Below, one piece after another: positions 445 through 12,495 of a stretch of 55,946 bases of DNA (position 1 is its first letter; each line of letters opens with the position of its first letter). The translations under genes were made by a program, and so were the position numbers. The stretch is from Rhodothermales bacterium (GTDB lineage: Bacteria; Bacteroidota; Rhodothermia; Rhodothermales; JAHQVL01): the NCBI GenBank assembly GCA_045106435.1, contig JBGCEN010000281.1, positions 1-55,946 of the forward strand, written 5' to 3'. The notes beneath the pieces were generated by a model. That model worked only from the letters and a program-made list of their open reading frames with translations, was not told the origin of the DNA and did no database searches.

Positions 445-1398
445 ATGAACGCCTGGAGTCTACCTAAATATGGACGCATCGAAGATCTTGGTTATGGGGA
501 TTACCCCAAGCCAACGTGTGAAGCGAATAATGTACTCGTTAAAATCAAAGCAGCAGCCTTAAATCCGGCTGACCTCAAACTTATATCTGGAAAAGACGGC
601 GGTACCCTATTGCACGCGCCTAATTTTCCGCTTGTGCCTGGATATGATTTCTCCGGCGTCGTCGAAGAAGTCGGAGAACAGGTCCGTGATCTTAAGAAAA
701 ACCAGGAGGTGTTCGGGTTTCTACCTTATGCAAAATCAACAACCCAGGGTGCTCTGGGTGACTATCTTATTGCAGATGCAAATACCATCAGTCCAAAACC
801 AGCCAATGTATCTCACGAAGACGCTGCTGCTGCTGCAACCACCGGCACCACTGCGCTCATAGGCCTTCGAGACAAAAGCCGGTTGAAATCGGGGCAGCAT
901 GTGCTGATTAATGGCGCATCGGGTGGCGTTGGTAGTTTTGCCGTGCAAATTGCCCGGCAGATGGGCGCTTCAGTATGGGGTACCTCAAGTGACAAAAACC
1001 TGGATACTATTTTAAGCCTCGGCGCTGAAAAAGCAATTGATTACAAAAAGACAGGTATTTCAGATTTATCAGAAAGCTTCGATGTTTTTTTGGATGCGTC
1101 CTCTACCGCCTCATTCCATCAAGCACTTCCCCGGCTCAACAAAGGAGGCACATACGTAACACTGCTTCCCTCGGCAACGCTGGCGACTGGCATCCTCAGA
1201 AGTTTGTTCTCATCGCGAAACTGCCGGTTTGTGATTGTTAAACCCAACAGTGAGGATCTTGCACAGTTGGCAGCGTGGATGGCCGGCGGTCAGTTAAAGC
1301 CGCTGATTGGCGCGAGTTATCCGATGAAAGAAGCACAGGAAGCGTTGCGGCATCTAAAACGAGGCTGCATTGGAAAAATCGTGTTGACAAATGCATGA
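445..1398 (+). CDS. NAD(P)-dependent medium-chain dehydrogenase/reductase (zinc-independent quinone oxidoreductase-like)
   Basis: LNPAD, PGYDFSGVVEEVG and Rossmann motif INGASGGVGSFAVQIA; C-terminal GKIVL; no zinc-binding Cys cluster. Confidence 0.9.
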   Translation: MNAWSLPKYGRIEDLGYGDYPKPTCEANNVLVKIKAAALNPADLKLISGKDGGTLLHAPNFPLVPGYDFSGVVEEVGEQVRDLKKNQEVFGFLPYAKSTTQGALGDYLIADANTISPKPANVSHEDAAAAATTGTTALIGLRDKSRLKSGQHVLINGASGGVGSFAVQIARQMGASVWGTSSDKNLDTILSLGAEKAIDYKKTGISDLSESFDVFLDASSTASFHQALPRLNKGGTYVTLLPSATLATGILRSLFSSRNCRFVIVKPNSEDLAQLAAWMAGGQLKPLIGASYPMKEAQEALRHLKRGCIGKIVLTNA

Positions 1399-1535: not shown

Positions 1536-3071
1536 ATGCGCTCACTTACGTTAAAACTTATTCTTGCATTTGTAGCCATTTGCATCATTCAGGCAGGGCT
1601 TGTTGCCATGCTTGTACGAGATTCAACCCACCGATCGTTTGATCGATTTGTACAGGAAGATGCCATTCAGTCGTTTATGCAGGAGGCAACGGCCCACTAC
1701 CAGACAAATAACAGTTGGGAAGGATTACGGGCTGCACTTCCATCCTTGCGGCTGGCATCAGGCAGAAATGACCGTCCACCGCCACCGATGCGCAATAACC
1801 AACCCCCACCACCTCGCGGCGGGCCACCTCCACAGCGCGATGGTGTAAGAAATCCCGAGAGACGCAATTCGAATAATAACCAAACAAACCTGCAACCAAA
1901 CAGCCAAAAGAATAATCCACCGCTACAAAAACGCAACAATCCAGGTAGACCAGGCCCAAGCCCCGGAAGTAAAGCACCATTTTTTGGTCTCGCTGATACA
2001 ACCGGCATGGTACTCCTGCCAAACGAGTTATTTGCAGCCGGCCAGACGCTCACCCCGGCCGAGCTTAAAAAAGGGAAGCCGTTATTCATCGATGAGCAAT
2101 TTCTGGCCATTGTGCTCATGCCATCGGAACGGGTACCACTCAGTACGCAAGCCAGAGCATTTATGGCAAGCTCAGATACTGCCCTTTTTTATGCGCTTCT
2201 TGCTGCCTTAAGCGTTTCGCTCGTGCTCGGACTCTGGTTTACCAGAACGTATCTAAAACCAGTACAAGAACTTACAACAGCAGCAAAAGGACTGGCCCAG
2301 GGCCAAGCTCAAGAACCGGTACCCGTTCGTACACGGGATGAAATTGGCACCCTGACGGCCGCGTTTAACCAGATGAACGTGAAACTGGACCGCTCAAAGA
2401 CCTTGCGCCGGCAAATGACGGCTGATATTGCGCATGAGCTACGTACACCGCTGACTGTATTGACCGGCTACCTGGAAGCATTGCGTGATGGAGATCTTCA
2501 GCCAAACAAAGAGCGCATGGAGATGATGTACACAGAAGCAAAGCATCTGCAGCGACTGGTTGAGGATCTTAGATTGCTCTCTCTGGCAGATGCAGGTGAA
2601 TTACCGCTTGTACACGAATCAGTCTCTCCCCACGATCTACTGCAACGCGTGCAGACATCCTTCGCCAAGCAAGCGAATGATGCATCCATAAAGATCAATG
2701 TAGAAGCGCCGGCTACGTTAAACCGCGTTTCACTGGATCCTGTGAGAATGCTCCAGGTCCTTACCAATCTCGTCAGCAATGCACTCCGATATACACCCGC
2801 TGGCGGCACAATTACCCTGGGTGTAGAAGCCTCAGGAGATGAAGTTGTATTTTTAGTTCAAGACTCAGGCGCCGGCATCCCCGAAGAGATGCTACCGCAT
2901 ATTTTTGATCGTTTTTACAAGGCAGATCAATCCCGGCAGCAACACTTGATTACTTCAGGATTGGGATTGGCCATTGCCAAATCTATTGTTGAAGCACACA
3001 AAGGGAAGATCTCGGTATCGTCAGAGAAAGACAACGGCACTGCGTTTGAAATCAGGCTTCCGGGCATATAA
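1536..3071 (+). CDS. Membrane sensor histidine kinase (BaeS-like; two TM helices, HAMP, HisKA, HATPase_c)
   Basis: HAMP RDEIGTLTAAFNQM; H-box IAHELRTPLT; N-box NLVSNALRY; G1 DSGAGI; F-box IFDRFYK; G2 GLGLAIA. Confidence 0.93.
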   Translation: MRSLTLKLILAFVAICIIQAGLVAMLVRDSTHRSFDRFVQEDAIQSFMQEATAHYQTNNSWEGLRAALPSLRLASGRNDRPPPPMRNNQPPPPRGGPPPQRDGVRNPERRNSNNNQTNLQPNSQKNNPPLQKRNNPGRPGPSPGSKAPFFGLADTTGMVLLPNELFAAGQTLTPAELKKGKPLFIDEQFLAIVLMPSERVPLSTQARAFMASSDTALFYALLAALSVSLVLGLWFTRTYLKPVQELTTAAKGLAQGQAQEPVPVRTRDEIGTLTAAFNQMNVKLDRSKTLRRQMTADIAHELRTPLTVLTGYLEALRDGDLQPNKERMEMMYTEAKHLQRLVEDLRLLSLADAGELPLVHESVSPHDLLQRVQTSFAKQANDASIKINVEAPATLNRVSLDPVRMLQVLTNLVSNALRYTPAGGTITLGVEASGDEVVFLVQDSGAGIPEEMLPHIFDRFYKADQSRQQHLITSGLGLAIAKSIVEAHKGKISVSSEKDNGTAFEIRLPGI

Positions 3072-3083
3072 TTTAGCCACTGC

Positions 3084-3773
3084 TCAGCCACTGTCGGCAA
3101 ATCGATAGCCGGCGCCGAAGACTGTTTCTATGTAGGTCGGATTTGCACTATCAGGTTCGATCTTGGTACGCAGGTTTCGTATATGCACATCAACTGTACG
3201 CTCAACACCTTCCACGGCAATATTGTGCAGTTTTTCCAGCAACTGTGCCCGCGAATATACGCGCCCCGGATGCCCCATCATTGTGGCGAGTAATTCAAAC
3301 TCTGTCGGCGTGAGCCTTACTTCTTTCCCCTCAACCAGTACACGGTATTTATCTTTATCGAGTACGATACCGCCAGCCTTCAGTACTGCATCTACATCGG
3401 TTTCTGATGACTCAACCCGGCGCAAAACAGCCTTTATTCTAGCAACCAGTTCGCGCATGCCAAAAGGCTTCGTTACATAATCATCTGCCCCTAACTCCAG
3501 TCCAACCACCTTGTCTGTTTCATCAACCCGTGCTGTGAGCAGAATGATGGGTGTTTTATTTTCCTGGCGATGAATGCGCATGAATTCCATACCATCCAAT
3601 TCAGGCATCATAACATCCAATAGAATAAGATGCGGACGAAACTCTCTCGCCTTAAACAAAGCCTCTCTCCCATTAGCGGCTGTTTCTATCTCAAAACCGT
3701 GCTCGGCCAAGTACTCTTTGAGCATATGCCGCACGTTTAACTCGTCATCTACTACTAATATTTTCTTAGCCAA
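3084..3773 (-). CDS. OmpR/PhoB-family response regulator
   Basis: Receiver ILVVDD, DVMMPELDG, KPF; winged helix LTPTEFELL, RTVDVHIRNLRTKI, TVFGAGYRF. TTG start. Confidence 0.95.
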   Translation of the reverse strand: MAKKILVVDDELNVRHMLKEYLAEHGFEIETAANGREALFKAREFRPHLILLDVMMPELDGMEFMRIHRQENKTPIILLTARVDETDKVVGLELGADDYVTKPFGMRELVARIKAVLRRVESSETDVDAVLKAGGIVLDKDKYRVLVEGKEVRLTPTEFELLATMMGHPGRVYSRAQLLEKLHNIAVEGVERTVDVHIRNLRTKIEPDSANPTYIETVFGAGYRFADSG

Positions 3774-3901
3774 GTGCTACACCCTTCGAAGTTTTCAACT
3801 CAGTATTGCCCGATACGGCCAACAGGTACTCTTTTAACATGTCTGGTTCCTTTCGAACCTGCCAACACGCCCAAACTGGCAAATTTCGCATAAAATCGCA
3901 A

Positions 3902-3956
3902 TGGTACAATCCTTGTACAGCAGACCCATACCCAACCCAAGCTCTCCCCAAGGGCT
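3902..3956 (+). promoter_or_regulatory. Sigma54-like -24/-12 element (TGGTAC-AATCC-TTGTA, 3902-3917) followed by hairpin AGCTCT-CCCCA-AGGGCT (3940-3956)
   Basis: Same block with the same spacing upstream of the paralogous S8 gene at 7173-7227. GG-N10-GT rather than canonical GG-N10-GC. Confidence 0.5.
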
Positions 3957-4033
3957 GCCACCAGAGGACTTCATTACCTAGTTTCTTCACACAGGCGTGT
4001 AGATAGATTTCTATCCGTTTTATTGATGGTGAC

Positions 4034-6457
4034 ATGAAGCAAACTCCCGCTCGTAATCAATACAACTCAAACCGTTGGATTACGTTACTGATCGCTGGTT
4101 TAATATTTTTTAGCCCCGCAATTTTACAAGGATGCGACGGATTAACGGGGATTGCCCCGCACGAAGAAGAGACGCTTCAAACACCCCGAAATGAGCAAAT
4201 AAAGCGAGTCAATAAATTAAGGCATTCCAACCTTTTGGAAAATGCAAGCCGGCTAACAATGGATTCTGCCGGCAAATCCGGGTCCCTGGCAATCAGCCTA
4301 TTCCTTTCTTTTAACGTCTATGAAGCCGACGGCATCACTCCGCGTCTTCTAAACAGATTTGAAACAACCAATCGTATTCTCGAAGAGTACGGCATTACGC
4401 GCAGGGTGCTTGAGAAATATGGAATTACCCATCGGATATTAAACGAATACGCAATTACGCGACGCATATTAAATCAGTACGGCGTAACGAGGCGCGTGCT
4501 TGAGAAGTATGGCATCACGCCCAGACTCCTGTCTCAATTCAACGACCAGGCCACGCCTGAATTGCTTGCGGATTATGATGTTTCAGACGACGTGCTGCTT
4601 AGCGAAGGCCTGACGCAGGCGGAAATAGATGATTTCAACAGGCTTTCCGCTTTACTTACAGACTTTAACATCACCATTGAGGAATTTGTAGAGGGGCTCG
4701 AGTCTGCTGTGCAGGAAATACGCGTCAAAATATCAATTGATGGCGCAAACCTGGGTATTTCTATTGAATTGGCCTCTGCCATGCTCGAAGCCTTCCTGGA
4801 AGAAATTGGTGATGATGAAGATATTCTTTTTGCAGAGCCAGACATAACCATCGACACTGCATTACTTGGAACGACAAGTGGTGAGTGGTATGACAAGCAG
4901 GTCATCCCCTGGGGCATTACGCACACGGAAACTCCAATACCCACTTTCTTCGACCTGTTTACGGCCGGCTATGCTGCAAAAAACCCTGTACACGTATTTA
5001 TCCTTGATTCCGGAGCGCTGGAAAACTCAATGTGGGATGATCTTTACTATGTTGAAAAGAAAGACTTCACCATGCTGTTTGAAAACCCTGATCAGCTAGA
5101 ATGGGATGAGGATCTTGCAGAAGATGTGACCGGATTTGACCCGGGTGATCTTGGAAATCCGTATGATGAATCTGGACATGGTACACACATCGCCGGCACC
5201 ATTGGGGCAAATAATGACCTTATCGGTGTGGTTGGGGTCGCGCCCTTCGTCAGAATACATAGCCTTAAGGTGCTCACCAAAGAAGGCCGCACAGACATAA
5301 CAACCCTACTGGCTGCTGTAGACTATGTTACGCGCACCAAAGAGGCCAATCCTGAGTGGCCAATTGTGGTCAATATGAGTCTTGGTGTTGATATTGGCAC
5401 CACCTCGTATAATATCCTCGACGAAGCCGTTAAAGAATCCATTTCAAAAGGAGTTGTATACGTCGCCGCAGCAGGCAACAACGGTGAAGATGCGTCCACG
5501 TATTCTCCTGCACATGTCGAAGAGGTTATTACTGTCGGTGCGTACAATGAACAAAGCGAATTTAGCAGCTTCTCCAACCACGGCACTCATGTAGATATTC
5601 TTGCTCCCGGCGAAAACATTATCTCGCTGTCACATATTATCGAAGACACCCAGTCTTTTGAAAGTGTTTTAGCAAGTGGCACATCCCAGGCTGCGCCACA
5701 TGTTACCGGGGCAATTGCGCGTTATCTGGGAGAAAACCCATACGTAAATGCCGGCCAGGTAGCCAAAGCATTGCAAACCTCGGCAAATACAGTCATTACA
5801 GGTGTACCTAACGGGACTACCAATAAATCGCTCAATGTGAATGTCCTACTGCAAGACGTCTTGGTCCTGGAAGAAGGAGAACTCATCCAAGATCCATACT
5901 ATGTGGATGAAAACAAGTCTTTAACCGATGCCTCATCATCAACGGATGCTTCGAATGATGACTCTGGCTCAAGCAATAGCACTGGATTCTTCACCATGGA
6001 TGACTTTTCTACGCAGGAATACAGTGGAAGCCATGGAAGTACAGACTGGTCAGGAGACTGGATTGAATCAGGCGAATCAAATGGATATGCAAAAGGTGAT
6101 TTCCGCGTAATAGCTGACAGTAAATGTGCGGAAGGACACTGCTTGCGGATTGATACAGACAAAGAAAACAAAGCCTTGTATCGTGCTGTGGACTTGAGCG
6201 GGAGTACATCTCCGACCCTCTCTTTCGACTATAGAAGAAAAGATCTTGAGTCATCGAACTTGCACCTGGAGGTTTCCAGCGACGCCGGCGCCACCTGGTC
6301 CAGAATTTTCACCTTTAGCAATGGGAATGATGCTGCGCAAGTCCAAAAAACTCTGGACATCTCGAAATTCGTAAGCAGTACAACCCAAATCAGATTTATC
6401 GTGAATGGACAAGGCGACAATTATGTATTCATCGACAACGTCCAAATTTCATTCTAA
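4034..6457 (+). CDS. Lipoprotein S8 subtilase A: I9-like prodomain with seven 10-aa repeats, catalytic domain and C-terminal beta-sandwich domain
   Basis: Lipobox LQG-C34; prodomain end DEDILFAEPD; triad D325 (ILDSG), H382 (GHGTHIAG), S551 (GTSQAAPHV); oxyanion AAGN; repeats at aa 101-170. Confidence 0.92.
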   Translation: MKQTPARNQYNSNRWITLLIAGLIFFSPAILQGCDGLTGIAPHEEETLQTPRNEQIKRVNKLRHSNLLENASRLTMDSAGKSGSLAISLFLSFNVYEADGITPRLLNRFETTNRILEEYGITRRVLEKYGITHRILNEYAITRRILNQYGVTRRVLEKYGITPRLLSQFNDQATPELLADYDVSDDVLLSEGLTQAEIDDFNRLSALLTDFNITIEEFVEGLESAVQEIRVKISIDGANLGISIELASAMLEAFLEEIGDDEDILFAEPDITIDTALLGTTSGEWYDKQVIPWGITHTETPIPTFFDLFTAGYAAKNPVHVFILDSGALENSMWDDLYYVEKKDFTMLFENPDQLEWDEDLAEDVTGFDPGDLGNPYDESGHGTHIAGTIGANNDLIGVVGVAPFVRIHSLKVLTKEGRTDITTLLAAVDYVTRTKEANPEWPIVVNMSLGVDIGTTSYNILDEAVKESISKGVVYVAAAGNNGEDASTYSPAHVEEVITVGAYNEQSEFSSFSNHGTHVDILAPGENIISLSHIIEDTQSFESVLASGTSQAAPHVTGAIARYLGENPYVNAGQVAKALQTSANTVITGVPNGTTNKSLNVNVLLQDVLVLEEGELIQDPYYVDENKSLTDASSSTDASNDDSGSSNSTGFFTMDDFSTQEYSGSHGSTDWSGDWIESGESNGYAKGDFRVIADSKCAEGHCLRIDTDKENKALYRAVDLSGSTSPTLSFDYRRKDLESSNLHLEVSSDAGATWSRIFTFSNGNDAAQVQKTLDISKFVSSTTQIRFIVNGQGDNYVFIDNVQISF

Positions 6458-6564
6458 TACTGTAATACAAACCGGACTTCCTGGGAAAAGGTAGTGCTTA
6501 CCACGGCCCCAGGCAGTCAATCAACCACCATTTTAAACCATCAATACAAACCAACACAAATACT

Positions 6565-6648
6565 ATGTTTGATTATCTATGGGACTTCTTTTTCGGCGGT
6601 AGCGGAGACGACATGGACTCTACAGAACGTGTTTTTGATCGCTTCTAA
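6565..6648 (+). CDS. Small peptide ORF copy 1, 27 aa: MFDYLWDFFFGGSGDDMDSTERVFDRF
   Basis: ATG 6565 to TAA 6648. Homologous to three other intact ORFs in the window; differences from copy 3 are mostly synonymous. Confidence 0.8.
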   Translation: MFDYLWDFFFGGSGDDMDSTERVFDRF

Positions 6649-6733
6649 TCCATCTTGCATCTAACCTACTCCACTTTCTCACCAGTACTTTATTCCACCC
6701 GCGTTTTTTAAACCTAAAACCAATAATTAAACC

Positions 6734-6817
6734 ATGCTTGATTATCTATGGGACCTGTTCTTTGGCGGCGACTCAGAAGAGTTAAACTCCACCCAACGTA
6801 TTTTTGACCGCTATTAA
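6734..6817 (+). CDS. Small peptide ORF copy 2, 27 aa: MLDYLWDLFFGGDSEELNSTQRIFDRY
   Basis: ATG 6734 to TAA 6817; conserved DYLWD..FFGG and RIFDRY ends; A-rich upstream region. Confidence 0.8.
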   Translation: MLDYLWDLFFGGDSEELNSTQRIFDRY

Positions 6818-6819
6818 AG

Positions 6820-6892
6820 CGTCATGCCAAACCATATGCTCAACTTGATTGGGTAGGGCTTGTCTGGATCCTGAATCAAGTCCAGGATGACG
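6820..6892. repeat. REP/MITE-like imperfect palindrome with CGTCAT...ATGACG ends
   Basis: The left arm contains caacttgatt and the right arm is gatcctgaatcaagtccaggatgacg. Same terminal hexamers as the element at 22405-22517. Confidence 0.55.
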
Positions 6893-7172
6893 TTTTGCTA
6901 AGTTGTGACATAGAGACAGGACTTGATCGAAGAAAACACGGTAATTTGCCTTGCCAGACAAGACAGCTTTTTTAAACTCCTAATCCCGCATCAATAACAA
7001 CAACCTGTACACGCACAAGACAAACTTTTTTGTCAGTATTTCAATCGCTCCACTTAAACCACTAATTCAACAACTACCACTAGCTATGTTAAAATGTACC
7101 CTTTGACCTTTACGGGTTTCTTTTTGAATCCACCCAAGCAGACAAAGCCGCTAATTTCGCCTAAAATTGTGC

Positions 7173-7227
7173 TGGCACAATCCTTGTAAAAGATATTTGC
7201 ACCCTACCAAAGCTCTCCCCAAGGGCT
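7173..7227 (+). promoter_or_regulatory. Sigma54-like -24/-12 element (TGGCAC-AATCC-TTGTA, 7173-7188) followed by hairpin AGCTCT-CCCCA-AGGGCT (7211-7227)
   Basis: Matches the 3902-3956 block, with an identical 22-nt gap between promoter element and hairpin. Confidence 0.55.
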
Positions 7228-7305
7228 TACATCAAAGGACTTCATCATTCCCGGCTCTACTGGAATGTGCGCAGATGGATTTAATAATCTATCTTGGAAA
7301 CTTAA

Positions 7306-9213
7306 ATGGACAATATTGCTCCCCGCAGTAACCCACTTCATAAACGCTGGATTACTTTAGGTATTGCTGGTTTGCTCTTCATAAGCCCCAGCGTATTGCA
7401 AGGTTGCGATGCCCTGACCGGCGCTGAAGAAAATGAAGCTCAACTACAATTTGACGACCGCGTTAACGTAAAAGCGGCTCAACAAGAAAACAAACTTAGA
7501 CACCCTGCGCTTCTGACTGGCGCAAAAAGACAATTTACTGGTTCAGCTGGTAAAACAGGCGAGGCCACAAGTCTCTTCCTTGCATTCAACGGGTACGAAG
7601 CAGATGGCATTACCCCACGTGTGCTCAACAAATTCGAAGTCACGAATCGCATCCTTGAGGAATACGGCATCACGCGACGCGTATTAGGCAAATATGGAAT
7701 CACAAAACGTGTTTTAAGCCAATATGATGTTACCAGACGCATTCTCCAGCAATACGATATAACGCGGCGCATCCTGGACAAATATGGCATAACACCACGC
7801 GTTCTGAGTAAATACAATGACCAGCTTTCAGTTGATCTTTTAAACAGCAATGGACTCACTGCCGACGTCCTTGCAGAAGAAGGATTAACGCAAGAGGATC
7901 TGGATGACTTCAACAACCTCTCCCGTCTACTTAACGAACATGATCTAACCCTGGAAACGTTTGTTGCAGAGCTAGACGCAGCCATATCATCCATTCGAGT
8001 CAAAATATTTATCGATGGTGTTCACCTGGGCGTTTCTATCGAACTAAACTCTGATCTACTTGCCGATCTGCTTGATGAAATAGCAGATGATCCAGACATT
8101 CTGTTCGTCGAGCCAGACATAACAATTCAAATCTCTGAGTTGGGGATGTTGAGCGACGGTAATCAGCAGAATCAGATTATCCCCTGGGGCAATACAAATG
8201 TTGACGCGGTGACCTCATCATCAGAAGCGATGTGGACTGCCAAATATTTCACAAATCAATTACGCGTATATGTCCTTGATTCAGGATCAATGAATACTTC
8301 GGGCTGGGATGATGCCATGGTGGAAGAACAAAAAGACTTCACGATGCTTTTCGAGAACCCGGATGAAATGTACTGGGAAGAAGATGATGCTCAGGATGTT
8401 ACAGGATTTGACCCAGGTACGCGAGGCAATCCACTAGACGAATCCGGGCATGGGTCGCACGTCGCCGGCACCATTGGCGCAATGAATAACAAGTTCGGAA
8501 TTATCGGTGTCGCACCGGGTGTATCCATCCATAGCTTAAAAGTGCTGACCAAAGAAGGCAGAACCGACATCACAACCTTACTTGCAGCGGTAGACTATGT
8601 AACACGTGCCAAGCTTAACAACCCAGCCATTCCTATGGTTGTGAACATGAGTCTGGGCGTTGACATTGGGACCACAACCTACAACGTGCTTGATGAAGCC
8701 ATCGAAGCTTCGATTGAGGCTGGCGTCATCTACGTAGTTGCAGCCGGCAATGATGGACAAAACGCTGCCACCTATTCACCAGCACACGTAACTGGTGCAA
8801 TCACGGTTGGTGCTTACAACGAACAGAACTTGTTCTCTTCCTTCTCCAACTATGGATCAAGTGTGGACATTCTTGCGCCGGGTGAAAATATCATTTCACT
8901 GTCACACAAGATCAACGAGACAAAGTCATTTGAGACAATCCTGGCAAGCGGTACGTCGCATGCAGCCCCTTATGTGACTGGCGCTGTTGCCTGGTATTTG
9001 GGCGACAACCCAAATGCAACCGCCGCGCAGGTCAAAGCTGCTTTGCTTGAATCCGCAAACACGGAAATTAACGGTGTCCCTGCCACCACAACGTTAAAAG
9101 CGCTCAATGTGGGCCGATTCACCGGGACAGCACAGGATACGGCTGCCGATGCCTCGGTAGATTCCATCAACGACGACGTCTTCACCAATGTCAAAAAAGA
9201 TAAAAAATGGTAA
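7306..9213 (+). CDS. Lipoprotein S8 subtilase B, paralog of 4034-6457 lacking the C-terminal beta-sandwich domain
   Basis: Lipobox LQG-C34; seven 10-aa repeats at aa 102-171; DDPDILFVEPD; D325 (VLDSG), H382 (GHGSHVAG), S551 (GTSHAAPYV). Confidence 0.92.
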   Translation: MDNIAPRSNPLHKRWITLGIAGLLFISPSVLQGCDALTGAEENEAQLQFDDRVNVKAAQQENKLRHPALLTGAKRQFTGSAGKTGEATSLFLAFNGYEADGITPRVLNKFEVTNRILEEYGITRRVLGKYGITKRVLSQYDVTRRILQQYDITRRILDKYGITPRVLSKYNDQLSVDLLNSNGLTADVLAEEGLTQEDLDDFNNLSRLLNEHDLTLETFVAELDAAISSIRVKIFIDGVHLGVSIELNSDLLADLLDEIADDPDILFVEPDITIQISELGMLSDGNQQNQIIPWGNTNVDAVTSSSEAMWTAKYFTNQLRVYVLDSGSMNTSGWDDAMVEEQKDFTMLFENPDEMYWEEDDAQDVTGFDPGTRGNPLDESGHGSHVAGTIGAMNNKFGIIGVAPGVSIHSLKVLTKEGRTDITTLLAAVDYVTRAKLNNPAIPMVVNMSLGVDIGTTTYNVLDEAIEASIEAGVIYVVAAGNDGQNAATYSPAHVTGAITVGAYNEQNLFSSFSNYGSSVDILAPGENIISLSHKINETKSFETILASGTSHAAPYVTGAVAWYLGDNPNATAAQVKAALLESANTEINGVPATTTLKALNVGRFTGTAQDTAADASVDSINDDVFTNVKKDKKW

Positions 9214-9282
9214 ACAGCCTCACCAGTATCAACATCTCTTAAATCTAGCTACAACACACCTTTACATAAACAGGAAAAAACT

Positions 9283-9366
9283 ATGTTTGACTATATATGG
9301 GATTTCTTTTTCGGCGGCGGCGGAGACGACATGGACTCAACAGAACGCGTTTTTGATCGGTTCTAA
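9283..9366 (+). CDS. Small peptide ORF copy 3, 27 aa: MFDYIWDFFFGGGGDDMDSTERVFDRF
   Basis: ATG 9283 to TAA 9366; upstream CAGGAAAAAACT (AGGA SD-like); 25/27 identical to copy 1. Confidence 0.82.
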   Translation: MFDYIWDFFFGGGGDDMDSTERVFDRF

Positions 9367-9451
9367 TCTGTAAGTATCCAATCCGCAATTCCGTCCCACA
9401 AGCGCATGATTTCACCCGCTTCCTTATGAACCTGTAACCATCAATTAAGCT

Positions 9452-9532
9452 ATGTATTGACACCTCCCAAACCTGTTCTTCGGCGGCGACTCAAGTAGAT
9501 GCAGACTCCATCCGATGCGTTTTGATCGCTCC
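9452..9532 (+). pseudogene. Decayed copy 4 of the small peptide family
   Basis: ATG TAT TGA (stop at codon 3), then AAC CTG TTC TTC GGC GGC GAC TCA (NLFFGGDS) and TTT GAT CGC (FDR). The middle reads VDADSIRCV only in a shifted frame. Confidence 0.65.
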
Positions 9533-9611
9533 TGGCCGGCACGTACTCACCTAAACCAACACTGTAAACAAAACACGCTACATTCGCTACACTCTAAAAA
9601 TCAGGAAAAAT

Positions 9612-9692
9612 ATGTTTGATTATCTATGGGACTTCTTTTTTGGCGGCGATTCTCCCGACGTACAGTCGCAACGCGTCTTCGACCGCTTTTAA
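9612..9692 (+). CDS. Small peptide ORF copy 5, 26 aa: MFDYLWDFFFGGDSPDVQSQRVFDRF
   Basis: ATG 9612 to TAA 9692; upstream TCAGGAAAAAT (AGGA SD-like); conserved termini. Confidence 0.82.
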   Translation: MFDYLWDFFFGGDSPDVQSQRVFDRF

Positions 9693-9745
9693 TTCTCACA
9701 CTTCATTACGACCTGGCCATCTGACGTATGGCAAGAAATACACAA

Positions 9746-9781
9746 AAAGAGCCGGCAGGCTCATCGACCTGCCGGCTCTTT
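9746..9781. terminator. Intrinsic terminator hairpin closing the S8/peptide cassettes
   Basis: AAAGAGCCGGCAGG / 8-nt loop / CCTGCCGGCTCTTT, a perfect 14-bp stem with A and T flanks. Confidence 0.8.
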
Positions 9782-9835
9782 AATTTCACAATCACCCGAT
9801 GTACTCCTGTATTTTTTCTCTGAAGTTTATCAACC

Positions 9836-10264
9836 ATGCGATTCTTTACGGCTGTTCTCTTGATCCTCCTGATGACTTTTGCACTCGGTGACTATCTGGT
9901 GAAGGAGCAAGAAGACAAAAAAATTGCACTCATCACCCCTAAAGATGCCAATGCCCAGTATGAAAAAGGCTTTCTCATCTACAAAACACACTGCCAAAAT
10001 TGTCATGGAAAACATGCGGACGGGAAAGGTAAATTCCCTGGACTAGAGAATCACACCCCTACAGATTTCACGTCTGCCGCGTTCGACAAAACGCCTAAAG
10101 AAATGAGGCAAGTAATTCGCGATGGCGGATTAGCATCGGGACTGGATCCTCTCATGCCCAAGTGGGACACAATTCTGAGCGAAACGGAAATCCGGCAGGT
10201 GGTTTACTTCATCTACACGGTTCATGAAGAAGGAGAAATGCGCAAGCGGATTCGAACCAGGTAG
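9836..10264 (+). CDS. Class I monoheme cytochrome c with N-terminal membrane anchor or signal
   Basis: CQNCH heme motif; probable axial Met in LMPKW; hydrophobic N-terminus. Confidence 0.85.
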   Translation: MRFFTAVLLILLMTFALGDYLVKEQEDKKIALITPKDANAQYEKGFLIYKTHCQNCHGKHADGKGKFPGLENHTPTDFTSAAFDKTPKEMRQVIRDGGLASGLDPLMPKWDTILSETEIRQVVYFIYTVHEEGEMRKRIRTR

Positions 10265-10342
10265 GCAATTCGAGAGATCTCTCAAATTGAAACAGGAATG
10301 TCTAATATGGCTTTTTAATAGCTTCCGGCTAAGGGCTGAAGA

Positions 10343-10366
10343 CCCTTCGACAGGCTCAGCATGACG
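10343..10366. repeat. Half copy of the REP-like repeat (CCCTTCGACAGGCTCAGCATGACG)
   Basis: Nearly identical to the right arm at 22490-22517 (TTTCGACAGGCTCAAGATGACG); lies between convergent genes. Confidence 0.6.
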
Positions 10367-10411
10367 CTCAAGCATAGTTTGCCCTCGTCAACTTTGTAAT
10401 CCGTGAATGAC

Positions 10412-11251
10412 TTACTTCAATATAAGCCGGACAGCAATCACGCCAATGCCCACCTGCATCGTTCCAAGTGCAACAGCGGAATACGTATCAAAACGCTCAA
10501 AACCCGGCCGCAAGTCAGGGTCTCCAGAATTCTCATATCTTGCATAGCGACGATCTGCCTTGGTCTTGAATCGTACGGCCATAACACCCGAAGCAAGAGC
10601 TACACCGCCGGCCACATAGTCAATCCAGCGGGTTGATTTATTGCCGGGTTTCCAAAACGCCTTTGCCAGTTCCTCTTCTACAATTTTGGTTTCCAGGCTG
10701 ATATAATGCTGATTCCAGATTTTCTCACCCGGCGTTATACGCAAGGGTTCAAATCCACTTTTTGTCACCAGCAGCATGCCACGGATCGGATCATCAATTG
10801 CATACAGCAAGGGTGTATCGCCAAGTAAAATGCGCTCGCCCGGCGTTTCTAGAAAGACCTGTGCATCGTATGGCACAGATTCGACCCGGTAATGATATAA
10901 GAAATCAAGATCGAGCACCAAGCTGTCTCCCTGTTCCGTTTCAAGGTCTGCAACCAGCGGAGACATAGACCACGAATCCAGATTCGGCGGCACCAACCGA
11001 AGCGTCTTGGTAGCATGCGACAGCGTAAAGAATTTATCTGATGCCCTGCCGATATAAACGGAATCAGCATAGACCATTGCATTCTCGACGTTGGTCCGAA
11101 TCTCAACAACCCGGCTGCTCAAGGCCTGAGCATGGCTCTGCGCCGGCATCCCGATTGCGCTTACCAGCAGGAGTGCCGCAAAGAGTCCGAACAAAAAACC
11201 CGTCTTTTTAACATTCCACGAACGTTCAATCATTTCAATTCTTCCCATCAT
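10412..11251 (-). CDS. Exported protein with PEGA-like beta domains and a hydrophobic C-terminal segment
   Basis: Signal-like N-terminus ending AQSHA; PEGA-like segments (VEIRTNVENAMVYADSVYIG; VESVPYDAQVFLE..LGDTPL, LVTKSGFEP). Confidence 0.55.
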   Translation of the reverse strand: MMGRIEMIERSWNVKKTGFLFGLFAALLLVSAIGMPAQSHAQALSSRVVEIRTNVENAMVYADSVYIGRASDKFFTLSHATKTLRLVPPNLDSWSMSPLVADLETEQGDSLVLDLDFLYHYRVESVPYDAQVFLETPGERILLGDTPLLYAIDDPIRGMLLVTKSGFEPLRITPGEKIWNQHYISLETKIVEEELAKAFWKPGNKSTRWIDYVAGGVALASGVMAVRFKTKADRRYARYENSGDPDLRPGFERFDTYSAVALGTMQVGIGVIAVRLILK

Positions 11252-11316
11252 ATACGCTCAGCGCTATTAACTTGCCAGTGTACCATGTCGTTGACAATTA
11301 GCAGGCATGTAGAAAT

Positions 11317-12495
11317 TTAAGGCGTCTCTTCCCCTTCGACCTCAGGTTCATCCGGAGTAAAAGACAATATCATTTGTGTTTCAGCTGTAACAATGATGCC
11401 ATTGCCATAGCCGGTGACAGCAGACTTCACGCGTCCGGTCACTTCATGGCTCCAAAGCTCAATACCCGTCGTTGCGTCAATCGCGTGTAAATTTTTACGC
11501 ATGGTACCAACGTACACCGTTTGATCGGTAAAGAGAGGAGCGGCACTGATTGCGCCATCAAGCGAAGTCATCCAGTTTACCTCTCCAGAAGATGCATCAA
11601 AAGAACGGACTTCGCCATTAGTGGCTGATACAACCAACTGCTTTTTAGCAGGAGAATAAGCCGGCGTTGAGAACCGCACCGAAGAATCAGGAAGCGCAAA
11701 CTGCCAGACAAGTTGACCATTCGACGCATCAATAGCAGACAGCCGACCACGCGTTGTCGGAACGTAAATTAACTCGCCATCTGTTGTAGCGGTATTATAA
11801 ACAGGAGCCCCGACACCAACATCCCAAAGCAATTGTCCATCCTGAAGCTGCAATGCAAAAAGAGACCCCAGTTCATCTGTTACATACACCTTGTCTCCAA
11901 TCGCAAGAGGAGATGCAACAACCGTTGTGCGATCAGCAAGTAGTGTGCGCCAGAGTTCTTCGCCAGTTGTTGCATCGATGGCAATAACATGCGCATCTCT
12001 ATCTACGGCAATCACCTTGCCGTCGGTGTAAAGCAAGCCGGCTTCCACAGGTTGGCCTTTCAGTGTCCATAGTTTTTTGCCACTTCTCAAATTATAAGCG
12101 ACAACAGATTTCTTGTCGCCGGCAACGGGTACAAATAGCATCCCGTCCCCAACAGTCATCCCGCCCTCGATTGGCGCATCGTGTTTAATTCGACCGATAC
12201 GTTTTCCATTGGACAGATTCATGCCATGTACCAACCCTTTGCGCGTACCAACAATCACGATATCGTTGACCACAAGTACACCCGAAGGCCCTGTACCAGC
12301 GCCGGCATCGTAACGCCACTGCTCGTACAAAGGTGGATCGATCGTAGACTGGGCTGTATGCTGGCGCTGTACAGTTGCACCTTCCATCGCCCAGTCGCCT
12401 TCGCCTGGTGTCATATCATGCGATACCTTTAACTTCAGGCATCCACTACTGACCACAAGCAGCAAACTGAATAAAATAAATCGGGGATACTTCAT
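11317..12495 (-). CDS. PQQ-like beta-propeller lipoprotein (BamB-like)
   Basis: Lipobox VSSG-C; repeated A.D..TG...W motifs (AIDATTGEELW, AIDASNGQLVW, AIDATTGIELW). Confidence 0.85.
   Translation of the reverse strand: MKYPRFILFSLLLVVSSGCLKLKVSHDMTPGEGDWAMEGATVQRQHTAQSTIDPPLYEQWRYDAGAGTGPSGVLVVNDIVIVGTRKGLVHGMNLSNGKRIGRIKHDAPIEGGMTVGDGMLFVPVAGDKKSVVAYNLRSGKKLWTLKGQPVEAGLLYTDGKVIAVDRDAHVIAIDATTGEELWRTLLADRTTVVASPLAIGDKVYVTDELGSLFALQLQDGQLLWDVGVGAPVYNTATTDGELIYVPTTRGRLSAIDASNGQLVWQFALPDSSVRFSTPAYSPAKKQLVVSATNGEVRSFDASSGEVNWMTSLDGAISAAPLFTDQTVYVGTMRKNLHAIDATTGIELWSHEVTGRVKSAVTGYGNGIIVTAETQMILSFTPDEPEVEGEETP

Follow-up and report, generated by a model that had tools for sequence, protein, structure and literature searches.

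Subtilase propeptides have C-terminal tails that lie product-like in the substrate cleft and inhibit the enzyme, free-standing propeptide-like inhibitors exist in which the last six residues tune potency, and propeptides also hold preferred cleavage sites for their own protease (PMC10580911, PMC6993865). Here, we analyze a 55,946-nt stretch of DNA from a Rhodothermales bacterium (contig JBGCEN010000281.1, assembly GCA_045106435.1; hereafter the window), in which four intact open reading frames (ORFs) encoding peptides of 26 or 27 residues, pep1 to pep4, lie beside genes for two S8 subtilase lipoproteins, S8-A and S8-B. We find that the four ORFs are almost certainly real small proteins under selection and that each ends in what resembles a single unit of a repeat from S8 pro-regions, and we consider, tentatively, that the peptides modulate the maturation of these proteases. 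Genes this small escape standard annotation, and the locus offers a clean, well-controlled example: comparing its live copies with the dead one, with orthologues and across strains reveals selection on a 27-codon frame from sequence alone.

Four short reading frames under purifying selection

A preliminary description of the window had claimed four intact copies of a small ORF, and all four are present with exactly the translations it quoted (Table 1); a fifth, degraded copy was missing from its list. In each intact copy the ATG is the first start codon past an upstream in-frame stop, and the likeness between paralogs detected by the repeat finder is limited to the ORF, running from 7 nt 5' of the ATG to 2 nt 3' of the stop. 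The three-part layout first proposed for the product (an aromatic head ending in GG, a variable acidic linker and a conserved tail) holds for these copies and extends to seven more homologues, and we likewise see no signal peptide in the copies.

The pattern of substitution is that of a conserved coding sequence. As originally reported, pep1 and pep3 differ at 8 nucleotides, six of them third-position synonymous changes and two first-position changes (L/I and S/G). Over the head (12 codons) and tail (7 codons) of paralog pairs, the proportion of changed sites is 0.5–0.86 at synonymous positions (pS) and 0.02–0.13 at non-synonymous positions (pN); pep1 and pep4 are separated in these blocks by seven synonymous changes and one non-synonymous change. 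Pooling five phylogenetically independent pairs, we counted changes at 28.4 of 55.5 synonymous and 34.6 of 229.5 non-synonymous sites (pS 0.51 versus pN 0.15; Fisher p = 1e-7). A comparison of this kind across homologs had been suggested as a check on translation, and the third-position bias of a coding sequence is present. Across comparisons pN/pS is about 0.03–0.3, with synonymous sites about half saturated and non-synonymous sites nearly unchanged.

The fifth copy, which opens ATG TAT TGA and has lost its frame, is a built-in neutral control for the four live ones. Live orthologues retain 77–81% nucleotide identity, an intact frame and at most one in-frame 3-nt indel, whereas the decayed copy compared between this genome and that of a sister species (L067, GCA_964351915.1) is identical at only 52 of 102 alignment columns, with 24 gap columns. 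The early stop is common to the decayed copies of both species (about 3990–4080 in L067), and the fifth copy therefore died before they split.

Variation among strains points the same way. In contigs of related strains from public runs with marine metadata (metagenomes of plants, corals and biofilms), every change within the four ORFs is synonymous or conservative: at 6742 (D3E), 6772, 6793, 9303, 9660 (V17I) and 9665, together with TAA>TAG at 6648. The three in pep2 (6742, 6772 and 6793) all lie at third codon positions, and pep1 is substitution-free within the ORF apart from its stop codon. The flanks and the decayed copy carry more substitutions, and one strain has an indel at 9519.

One might still suppose a non-coding DNA or RNA repeat, or dead S8 fragments whose frames are open by chance, given how short the ORFs are and given that they have neither gene-caller support nor a database family. 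This supposition must contend with the strong third-position bias, with conservation that ends at the start and stop codons, with a truly dead copy that looks entirely different, and with an Rfam gathering scan of the whole window that returned no match. The codon-position pattern effectively refutes it, and we assign it a vanishingly small chance. The proposal of a translated small-ORF family under purifying selection is instead borne out by codon bias, by homology bounded by the ORF, by orthologues in three genera, by strain variants and by a transcript fragment covering pep4 (described below), and we regard the four ORFs as almost certainly real, selected small proteins.

The peptide tail resembles a repeat unit of S8 pro-regions

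The C-terminus of the peptides is invariant, reading h-h-D-R-F/Y (h, hydrophobic). The pro-regions of S8-A and S8-B each contain seven decapeptide units of the form T-x-R-h-L-x-x-Y/F-G-I (aa 102–171, nt 4337–4546 in S8-A; aa 103–172, nt 7612–7821 in S8-B), and the peptide tail T-x-R-V-F-D-R-F resembles one such unit. Five other S8 lipoprotein paralogues in the same genome (contigs C83, C99, C117, C279 and C301) have four tandem hexapeptides, K-V/I-L-D-R-Y/F, just N-terminal to an I9-like FNGFA...EPD segment, and tandem [KR]-h-h-[DE]-[RK]-[FY] in this genome is limited to those five. Across the lineage, the hexapeptide unit K/R/Q-V/I-L/V-D-R-Y/F is repeated 3–5 times in the I9-like pro-regions of S8 lipoproteins, and it is evidently the core of the seven decapeptide repeats of S8-A and S8-B. 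Metagenomic homologues contain intermediate units, for example GITKRLLDRY, that link the decapeptide type to the hexapeptide type. Each peptide tail (R-V/I-F-D-R-F/Y, RILDRF, GILDRY or GVVDRY) amounts to one copy of the hexapeptide unit. The core of the preliminary description of the family stands, but this identity between tail and pro-region repeat had gone unmentioned in it.

Several scores support the likeness. A position-specific scoring matrix (PSSM) built from the 14 decapeptide units assigned the peptide tails p-values between 8e-6 and 2e-2 (per 8-mer, relative to the proteome), and the best-scoring position was the very C-terminus in all eight peptides scored (pep3, whose tail is the same as that of pep1, was left out). 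Comparison of the peptide profile with the pro-region profile by hhalign (P = 4.4e-5) placed the tail on the first unit. Ending an ORF in [IVLM][IVLFM]DR[FYW] is rare, being found in 10 of 215,604 stop-to-stop ORFs, four of which are these peptides.

Within the order, 79 of 285 genomes, from 51 of 105 genera, encode S8 enzymes with such units. Their sequence is h-h-D-R-Y/F in the family that bears the peptides and h-h-E-R-Y/F, with an occasional Q-R, in those loci of other families that were read. In genome G007, a member of another genus of the peptide-bearing family, the S8 array opens with NVVDRY and the peptide ends in GVVDRY. Repeat-bearing S8 lipoproteins, loci L071–L092 included, have 3–5 tandem x-h-h-[D/E]-R-[Y/F] units, and no Pfam model covers the repeat. 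The last repeat does fall on positions 37–43 of the I9 profile in a weak Pfam match (E = 0.043), which indicates that the repeats lie inside a divergent I9 prodomain. An AlphaFold2 model of S8-B (mean predicted local distance difference test score 72) renders the repeats as short helices at low confidence and gave no contact information for them. In that sense, the likeness to a pro-region by which I9-like stand-alone inhibitors are recognized is found in the peptide tail.

Locus layout, distribution and history

The peptide genes follow the two S8 genes in a region that also encodes a two-component system (TCS) and a cytochrome c (Table 1). The distance from pep1 to pep2 is 169 nt, the same as from pep3 to the decayed copy, and this equal spacing indicates that a unit consisting of an S8 gene and two peptide genes was duplicated, with pep4 outside the duplicated unit. 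A protein search and our own profile hidden Markov model (HMM) run on the six-frame translation of the 7.19-Mb assembly found no copy beyond these.

Table 1. Features of the peptide locus, in window coordinates.
Feature	Position	Strand	Basis
Zinc-type alcohol dehydrogenase (ADH)	445–1398		
HAMP histidine kinase (HK)	1536–3071	+	
OmpR-type response regulator (RR)	3084–3773	-	
S8-A, 807-aa S8 subtilase lipoprotein, lipobox LQGC	4034–6457	+	Pfam PF00082, E = 3e-43
pep1, 27 aa, MFDYLWDFFFGGSGDDMDSTERVFDRF	6565–6648	+	ORF list; profile HMM, 55.9 bits in own-genome scan
pep2, 27 aa, MLDYLWDLFFGGDSEELNSTQRIFDRY	6734–6817	+	ORF list
Long hairpin followed by a U-run, 3' of pep2	6816–6897	+	Fold, -33 kcal/mol
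S8-B, 635-aa paralogue of S8-A	7306–9213	+	Pfam; repeat-unit listing
pep3, 27 aa, MFDYIWDFFFGGGGDDMDSTERVFDRF	9283–9366	+	ORF list; orthologue in sister species L067
Decayed fifth copy, ATG TAT TGA ..., frame broken	9451–9540 (about 9447–9540)	+	Repeat finder
pep4, 26 aa, MFDYLWDFFFGGDSPDVQSQRVFDRF, directly upstream of cytochrome c (ancestral position)	9612–9692	+	ORF list; synteny with G001, G002 and L067
Intrinsic-terminator hairpin, 14–15 bp, 3' of pep4	9746–9781	+	Folding z = -4.8; repeat finder
Membrane-anchored mono-haem cytochrome c, 142 aa	9836–10264	+	

Whole-genome HMM searches recovered members of the family, 26–31 aa in size, in six of eight genomes of one GTDB family (three genera); one sister species has members too. 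Two other species of the genus have one copy each (G001, MLEYIWNLLTGGTPDDNDHVEPNRIFDRY; G002, MLNFLWNLLFGGGDNSGDDHVEPQRVFDRY), and the other two genera of the GTDB family contribute G006 (MFQSILDWLFGGDSGDQTGPENQTNRILDRF), G007 (MLASLLKFLFGGETDPVAESMGVVDRY) and G003 (MFSAFWSFLFGEDNERGHTQGILDRY). Neither the 277 other genomes of the order nor 400 sampled from the phylum contained a full-length match, five peptides scanned against Pfam and NCBIfam gave nothing at E <= 10, and a degenerate DNA pattern had no matches in genome contigs. The same pattern matched one metagenome contig, at an ORF that ends in Trp in place of the stop; we rejected it as a false positive. A profile search of 1.84 billion representatives yielded no family member and only PKD-repeat proteins, an absence that is weak because ORFs below 30 aa are rarely called. 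The peptide profile cross-matches PKD-domain repeats through a YxWDFGDG motif (for example P0056, 1033 aa, YLWDFGDG), a false positive to expect in small-protein catalogues. The peptides thus form an undescribed miniprotein family that is confined to a single family-level clade of marine Bacteroidota of the Rhodothermales type.

Gene order across these genomes suggests how the cluster arose. G001 and G002 share the gene order ADH-HK-RR-pep-cytochrome c, which lacks a protease; their orthologues of S8-A and S8-B reside on other contigs, with no peptide there. The sister species L067 has ADH, an S8-B orthologue, a peptide gene, the same dead copy, a second peptide gene, a hairpin and cytochrome c, so that the order of S8 gene and peptide gene is common to it and the window. 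The HK/RR pair is present in our genome, G001 and G002 and absent from the otherwise collinear L067, where ADH is directly followed by S8. In all four loci of this genus (g1) cytochrome c lies directly downstream of the peptide gene, and in G003, G006 and G007 the peptide gene stands alone among unrelated, often convergent neighbours. The single, S8-free gene of G001, G002, G003, G006 and G007 indicates that the ancestral state was one monocistronic gene. By this comparison the ancestral gene stood alone with its own terminator, and its linkage to S8 and its amplification are recent and limited to the two sister species. In the present species the gene was apparently carried along with a duplicated S8 cassette, yielding four live copies and one dead copy.

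S8 genes also cluster in metagenomic loci. In L065 (ENA ERZ26696514 contig, 3170–11920) four S8 genes stand in a row, hexapeptide-type (~731 aa) alternating with decapeptide-type (~635 aa), with no small peptide nearby, and in L064 a gene for a 1528-aa hybrid histidine kinase is flanked by two S8 genes.

Transcript structure and an unlikely role in cis control

A single marine metatranscriptome contig maps to the 6.6-kb stretch 3700–10300, and it spans 9547–9707, that is, pep4 with a 65-nt leader; the chance that a random 161-nt piece would hold a whole peptide ORF is ~5%. Polyadenylated RNA-seq runs of a host organism contributed no reads on the locus. The 5' leaders of the peptide genes are C/A-rich and essentially unstructured. 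Between the S8-B stop and pep3 lies a 69-nt spacer that is unstructured and terminator-free, making co-transcription of the two likely. Compensatory changes preserve the hairpin 3' of pep4 in L067 and G002. The likely transcripts are S8-A-pep1-pep2, probably ending at the hairpin 3' of pep2, and S8-B-pep3-(pseudo)-pep4, and pep4 probably also retains its ancestral promoter.

The terminator conserved between pep4 and cytochrome c, along with the concentration of the strongest conservation in the last six codons before the stop, raises the idea of a cis-acting leader or arrest peptide, in which a ribosome halted at the conserved C-terminus and stop would govern the terminator and with it the next gene (cytochrome c or S8-B). 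We consider this highly unlikely. The pep4 hairpin begins 54 nt past the stop, too far for occlusion by a ribosome; in G003, G006 and G007 the next gene is convergent, leaving nothing to regulate in cis; and the tandem arrangement of pep1-pep2 and pep3-pseudo-pep4 does not suit such a device.

The hairpin 3' of pep2 is one instance of a short palindrome (6816–6925, core GGATCCTGAATCAAGTCCAGGATGACG) that is dispersed in the assembly, with ~8 partial copies, and shows 5–15x excess depth in public runs; a similar palindrome lies between the two peptide genes of L067. A block of ~130 nt is ~80% identical 5' of S8-A (3879–4010), S8-B (7117–7300) and the S8 gene of L067 (1418–1582), and the intergenic DNA outside it has diverged. 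This block is probably a shared promoter or regulatory region.

The head as a candidate membrane-seeking helix

The first ten residues of the peptides have a mean hydrophobicity of 0.5–0.75 and a helical moment of 0.3–0.5, and their two polar positions, 3 and 7, point to the same side of the helix; the net charge of the whole peptide is -2 to -5. The hydrophobic head comprises only ten residues, two of them acidic, and there is no transmembrane (TM) segment; at this length the head is too short for a TM helix. We infer instead an interfacial amphipathic helix, stopped by the GG, that would be membrane-seeking. As an illustration only, when the head is compared with 19,779 candidate N-termini from the same genome, the lipid-binding N-terminus of SecA, MIKFVQKLFGGDSND, ranks first; this protein (C366:12383) begins MIKFVQKLFGGDSNDRDL, and the match covers the head plus GGDS. 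Although the best in the proteome, it is not significant (E = 0.42) and was set aside.

Double-glycine leaders have ~15–30 residues and the pattern LSxxELxxIxGG, with hydrophobic residues at -4, -7, -12 and -15, Glu at -8, Gly at -2 and Gly, Ala or Ser at -1. The peptides have GG at positions 11–12 in 10 of 11 members, hydrophobic residues at -4, -7 and -12 relative to it, and an adjoining TCS in three genomes, features that would be expected if a C39-type peptidase-containing ABC transporter (PCAT) cut the head after the GG and freed an acidic 14–19-mer, a signalling or bacteriocin-like peptide that the neighbouring HK might detect. Much else in the family argues that this is very unlikely. 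Only ten residues precede the GG, position -8 is L, I or F rather than Glu and position -15 does not exist, in agreement with the earlier remark that the head departs from the classical leader; G003 reads FGEDN, placing Glu at -1; conservation in the head equals or exceeds that in the supposed mature part, and the N-terminal half of the latter varies more than any other region; none of the seven loci contains a transporter; and the product would be strongly anionic. A crude regular-expression screen of this genome, a 94%-complete metagenome-assembled genome, saw no C39/PCAT exporter among eight long ABC-type ORFs of 590–640 aa, which have neither the C39 Cys motif nor an extra N-domain of ~130 aa; a further ORF of 1046 aa is not an exporter. 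Given the 12-residue head, the GE of one homologue and the outcome of this screen, the earlier suggestion that the GG is a cleavage site is not supported.

An amphipathic head would also suit a small cytoplasmic or membrane-peripheral regulator that has nothing to do with S8 and acts on the TCS, on the cytochrome c and respiratory membrane, or on Sec, the likeness of the tail being coincidental or historical (a gene born from an S8 fragment). The ancestral site of the gene lies between RR and cytochrome c in G001 and G002, with cytochrome c downstream in the four loci of the genus; an orthologous HK/RR pair is found 4.3 kb away in G006; and the best match to the head in the genome is the SecA N-terminus. 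We nevertheless judge such a regulator rather unlikely. The L067 locus lacks the TCS yet keeps two peptides, the neighbours in G003 and G007 are wholly different, the SecA match falls short of significance, and it would be left unexplained why the S8 repeat unit is the most conserved part and why the peptides multiplied jointly with S8 genes.

A possible modulator of S8 maturation

At P4 subtilisins generally prefer a hydrophobic residue, and at P1 one that is aromatic or both large and hydrophobic. The peptide terminus L/F-D-R-Y/F-COOH fits this pattern, which favours the reading that the miniproteins, through their pro-region-motif tail, are mimics or modulators of S8 maturation, a proposal that we would put somewhat short of an even chance. 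The peptide would consist of an amphipathic, membrane-seeking head, an acidic linker and a free C-terminal pro-region unit. If the repeats in the S8 pro-region are recognition or cleavage sites during maturation of the pro-enzyme, the peptides could compete in trans for whatever reads the repeat motif. The simplest target would be the substrate cleft of the subtilase itself, with L/F-D-R-Y/F-COOH as a product-like P4–P1 ligand, and binding of such a decoy could tune the maturation or activity of the pro-enzyme. The helix, its binding to membranes, the interaction with S8 and any inhibition are all predictions drawn from the sequences.

A number of observations weigh against this proposal. The peptides lack a signal peptide and a nearby exporter, and the S8 enzymes are Sec-exported lipoproteins (lipobox LQGC), so that the two belong to different compartments and a direct meeting is unexplained. 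The likeness rests on 5–6 residues and was spotted post hoc; the peptides of the window itself have F, not L, at the P4-equivalent position; covariation of F/Y between peptide tails and S8 repeats was looked for and was inconsistent; and hhalign did not support homology between the head and the pro-region (beta1 segment). Repeat-bearing S8 enzymes are far more widespread than the peptides, no S8 gene lies beside the peptide gene in G001, G002, G003, G006 or G007, and the metagenomic S8 clusters L064, L065, L068 and L069 have no adjacent peptide. Finally, the RNA evidence is a single contig at a depth of ~2, of unknown strand and with DNA carry-over possible.

The adjacency of S8 genes also admits another relationship, in which the peptides are precursors of a ribosomally synthesized and post-translationally modified peptide (RiPP) and the adjacent S8 peptidases remove a leader or follower. 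S8 peptidases serve as RiPP leader peptidases (LanP, PatA/G), and several precursor copies with a hypervariable middle would be in keeping with this, although the resemblance of the S8 enzymes to those peptidases amounts to weak NCBIfam similarity only. We give it a slender chance: no modifying enzyme (radical SAM, YcaO, LanM, P450 and so on) was seen in the window neighbourhood or at six other loci, the S8 enzymes are exported lipoproteins from a large, housekeeping-like paralogue family and are unlinked to the peptide gene in most genomes, and the variable part is the acidic linker rather than a core between recognition sites.

Returning to the modulation of S8 maturation, a bolder form of the proposal is that the peptides constitute a new micropeptide class: leaderless products of 26–31 residues, made of a membrane-seeking helix and one pro-region repeat unit, that would take an unrecognized route to the exported S8 lipoproteins, or to precursors of these at the translocon, and time pro-enzyme activation as product-like decoys, with gene number scaling with the number of protease cassettes. 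We think this full scheme unlikely. Should the tail indeed mimic the pro-region repeat, these peptides would be the smallest known free-standing propeptide-derived subtilase modulators, and a role would be at hand for the so far unexplained hexa- and decapeptide repeats in the S8 pro-regions of about a quarter of the genomes of the order.

Comparison with known systems

Small-protein regulators of two-component systems such as MgrB, SafA and PmrD are, like the peptides, products of very small genes of a size that goes unannotated. The peptide gene adjoins, and is divergent from, the RR gene in G001 and G002, but conservation of the link to a TCS stops at one genus, and the sister species has lost it; MgrB and SafA, moreover, are TM proteins, whereas this family has no TM segment.

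The head invites comparison with N-terminal amphipathic membrane-targeting helices (SecA residues 1–20, MreB and MinD-type membrane-targeting sequences), which share with it a short aromatic or hydrophobic segment ended by G-G/S. In those cases the helix belongs to a large protein; in the peptides it would account for a third of the entire product.

Double-glycine substrates of PCATs (class II bacteriocins and ComC-type pheromones) resemble the peptides in being small, in having GG near the N-terminus and a hydrophobic periodicity before it, and in the presence of a TCS next door in some genomes. They differ in having a leader of 15–30 residues in place of a 12-residue head; in the peptides, moreover, conservation is concentrated at the extreme C-terminus and the product is anionic.

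A close parallel is with the stand-alone inhibitors of MEROPS family I9 (Pleurotus POIA1, yeast PBI2/YIB2 and the Plasmodium SUB1 propeptide-like protein), which are likewise separate genes copying part of a subtilase pro-region. Those inhibitors have ~70–80 aa and a full alpha/beta fold and share a compartment with their protease; the peptides have 26–31 aa and one six-residue unit, do not match I9 (PF05922, E <= 10) and have no export signal. The unit copied by the peptides belongs to the N-terminal half of the pro-region and not to its junction tail. The last ~6 residues of the I9 inhibitors occupy the active-site cleft like a product and determine potency (PMC10580911, PMC6993865), and in the peptides it is likewise the free C-terminus that is the pro-region unit, with a hydrophobic residue at P4 and an aromatic residue at P1.

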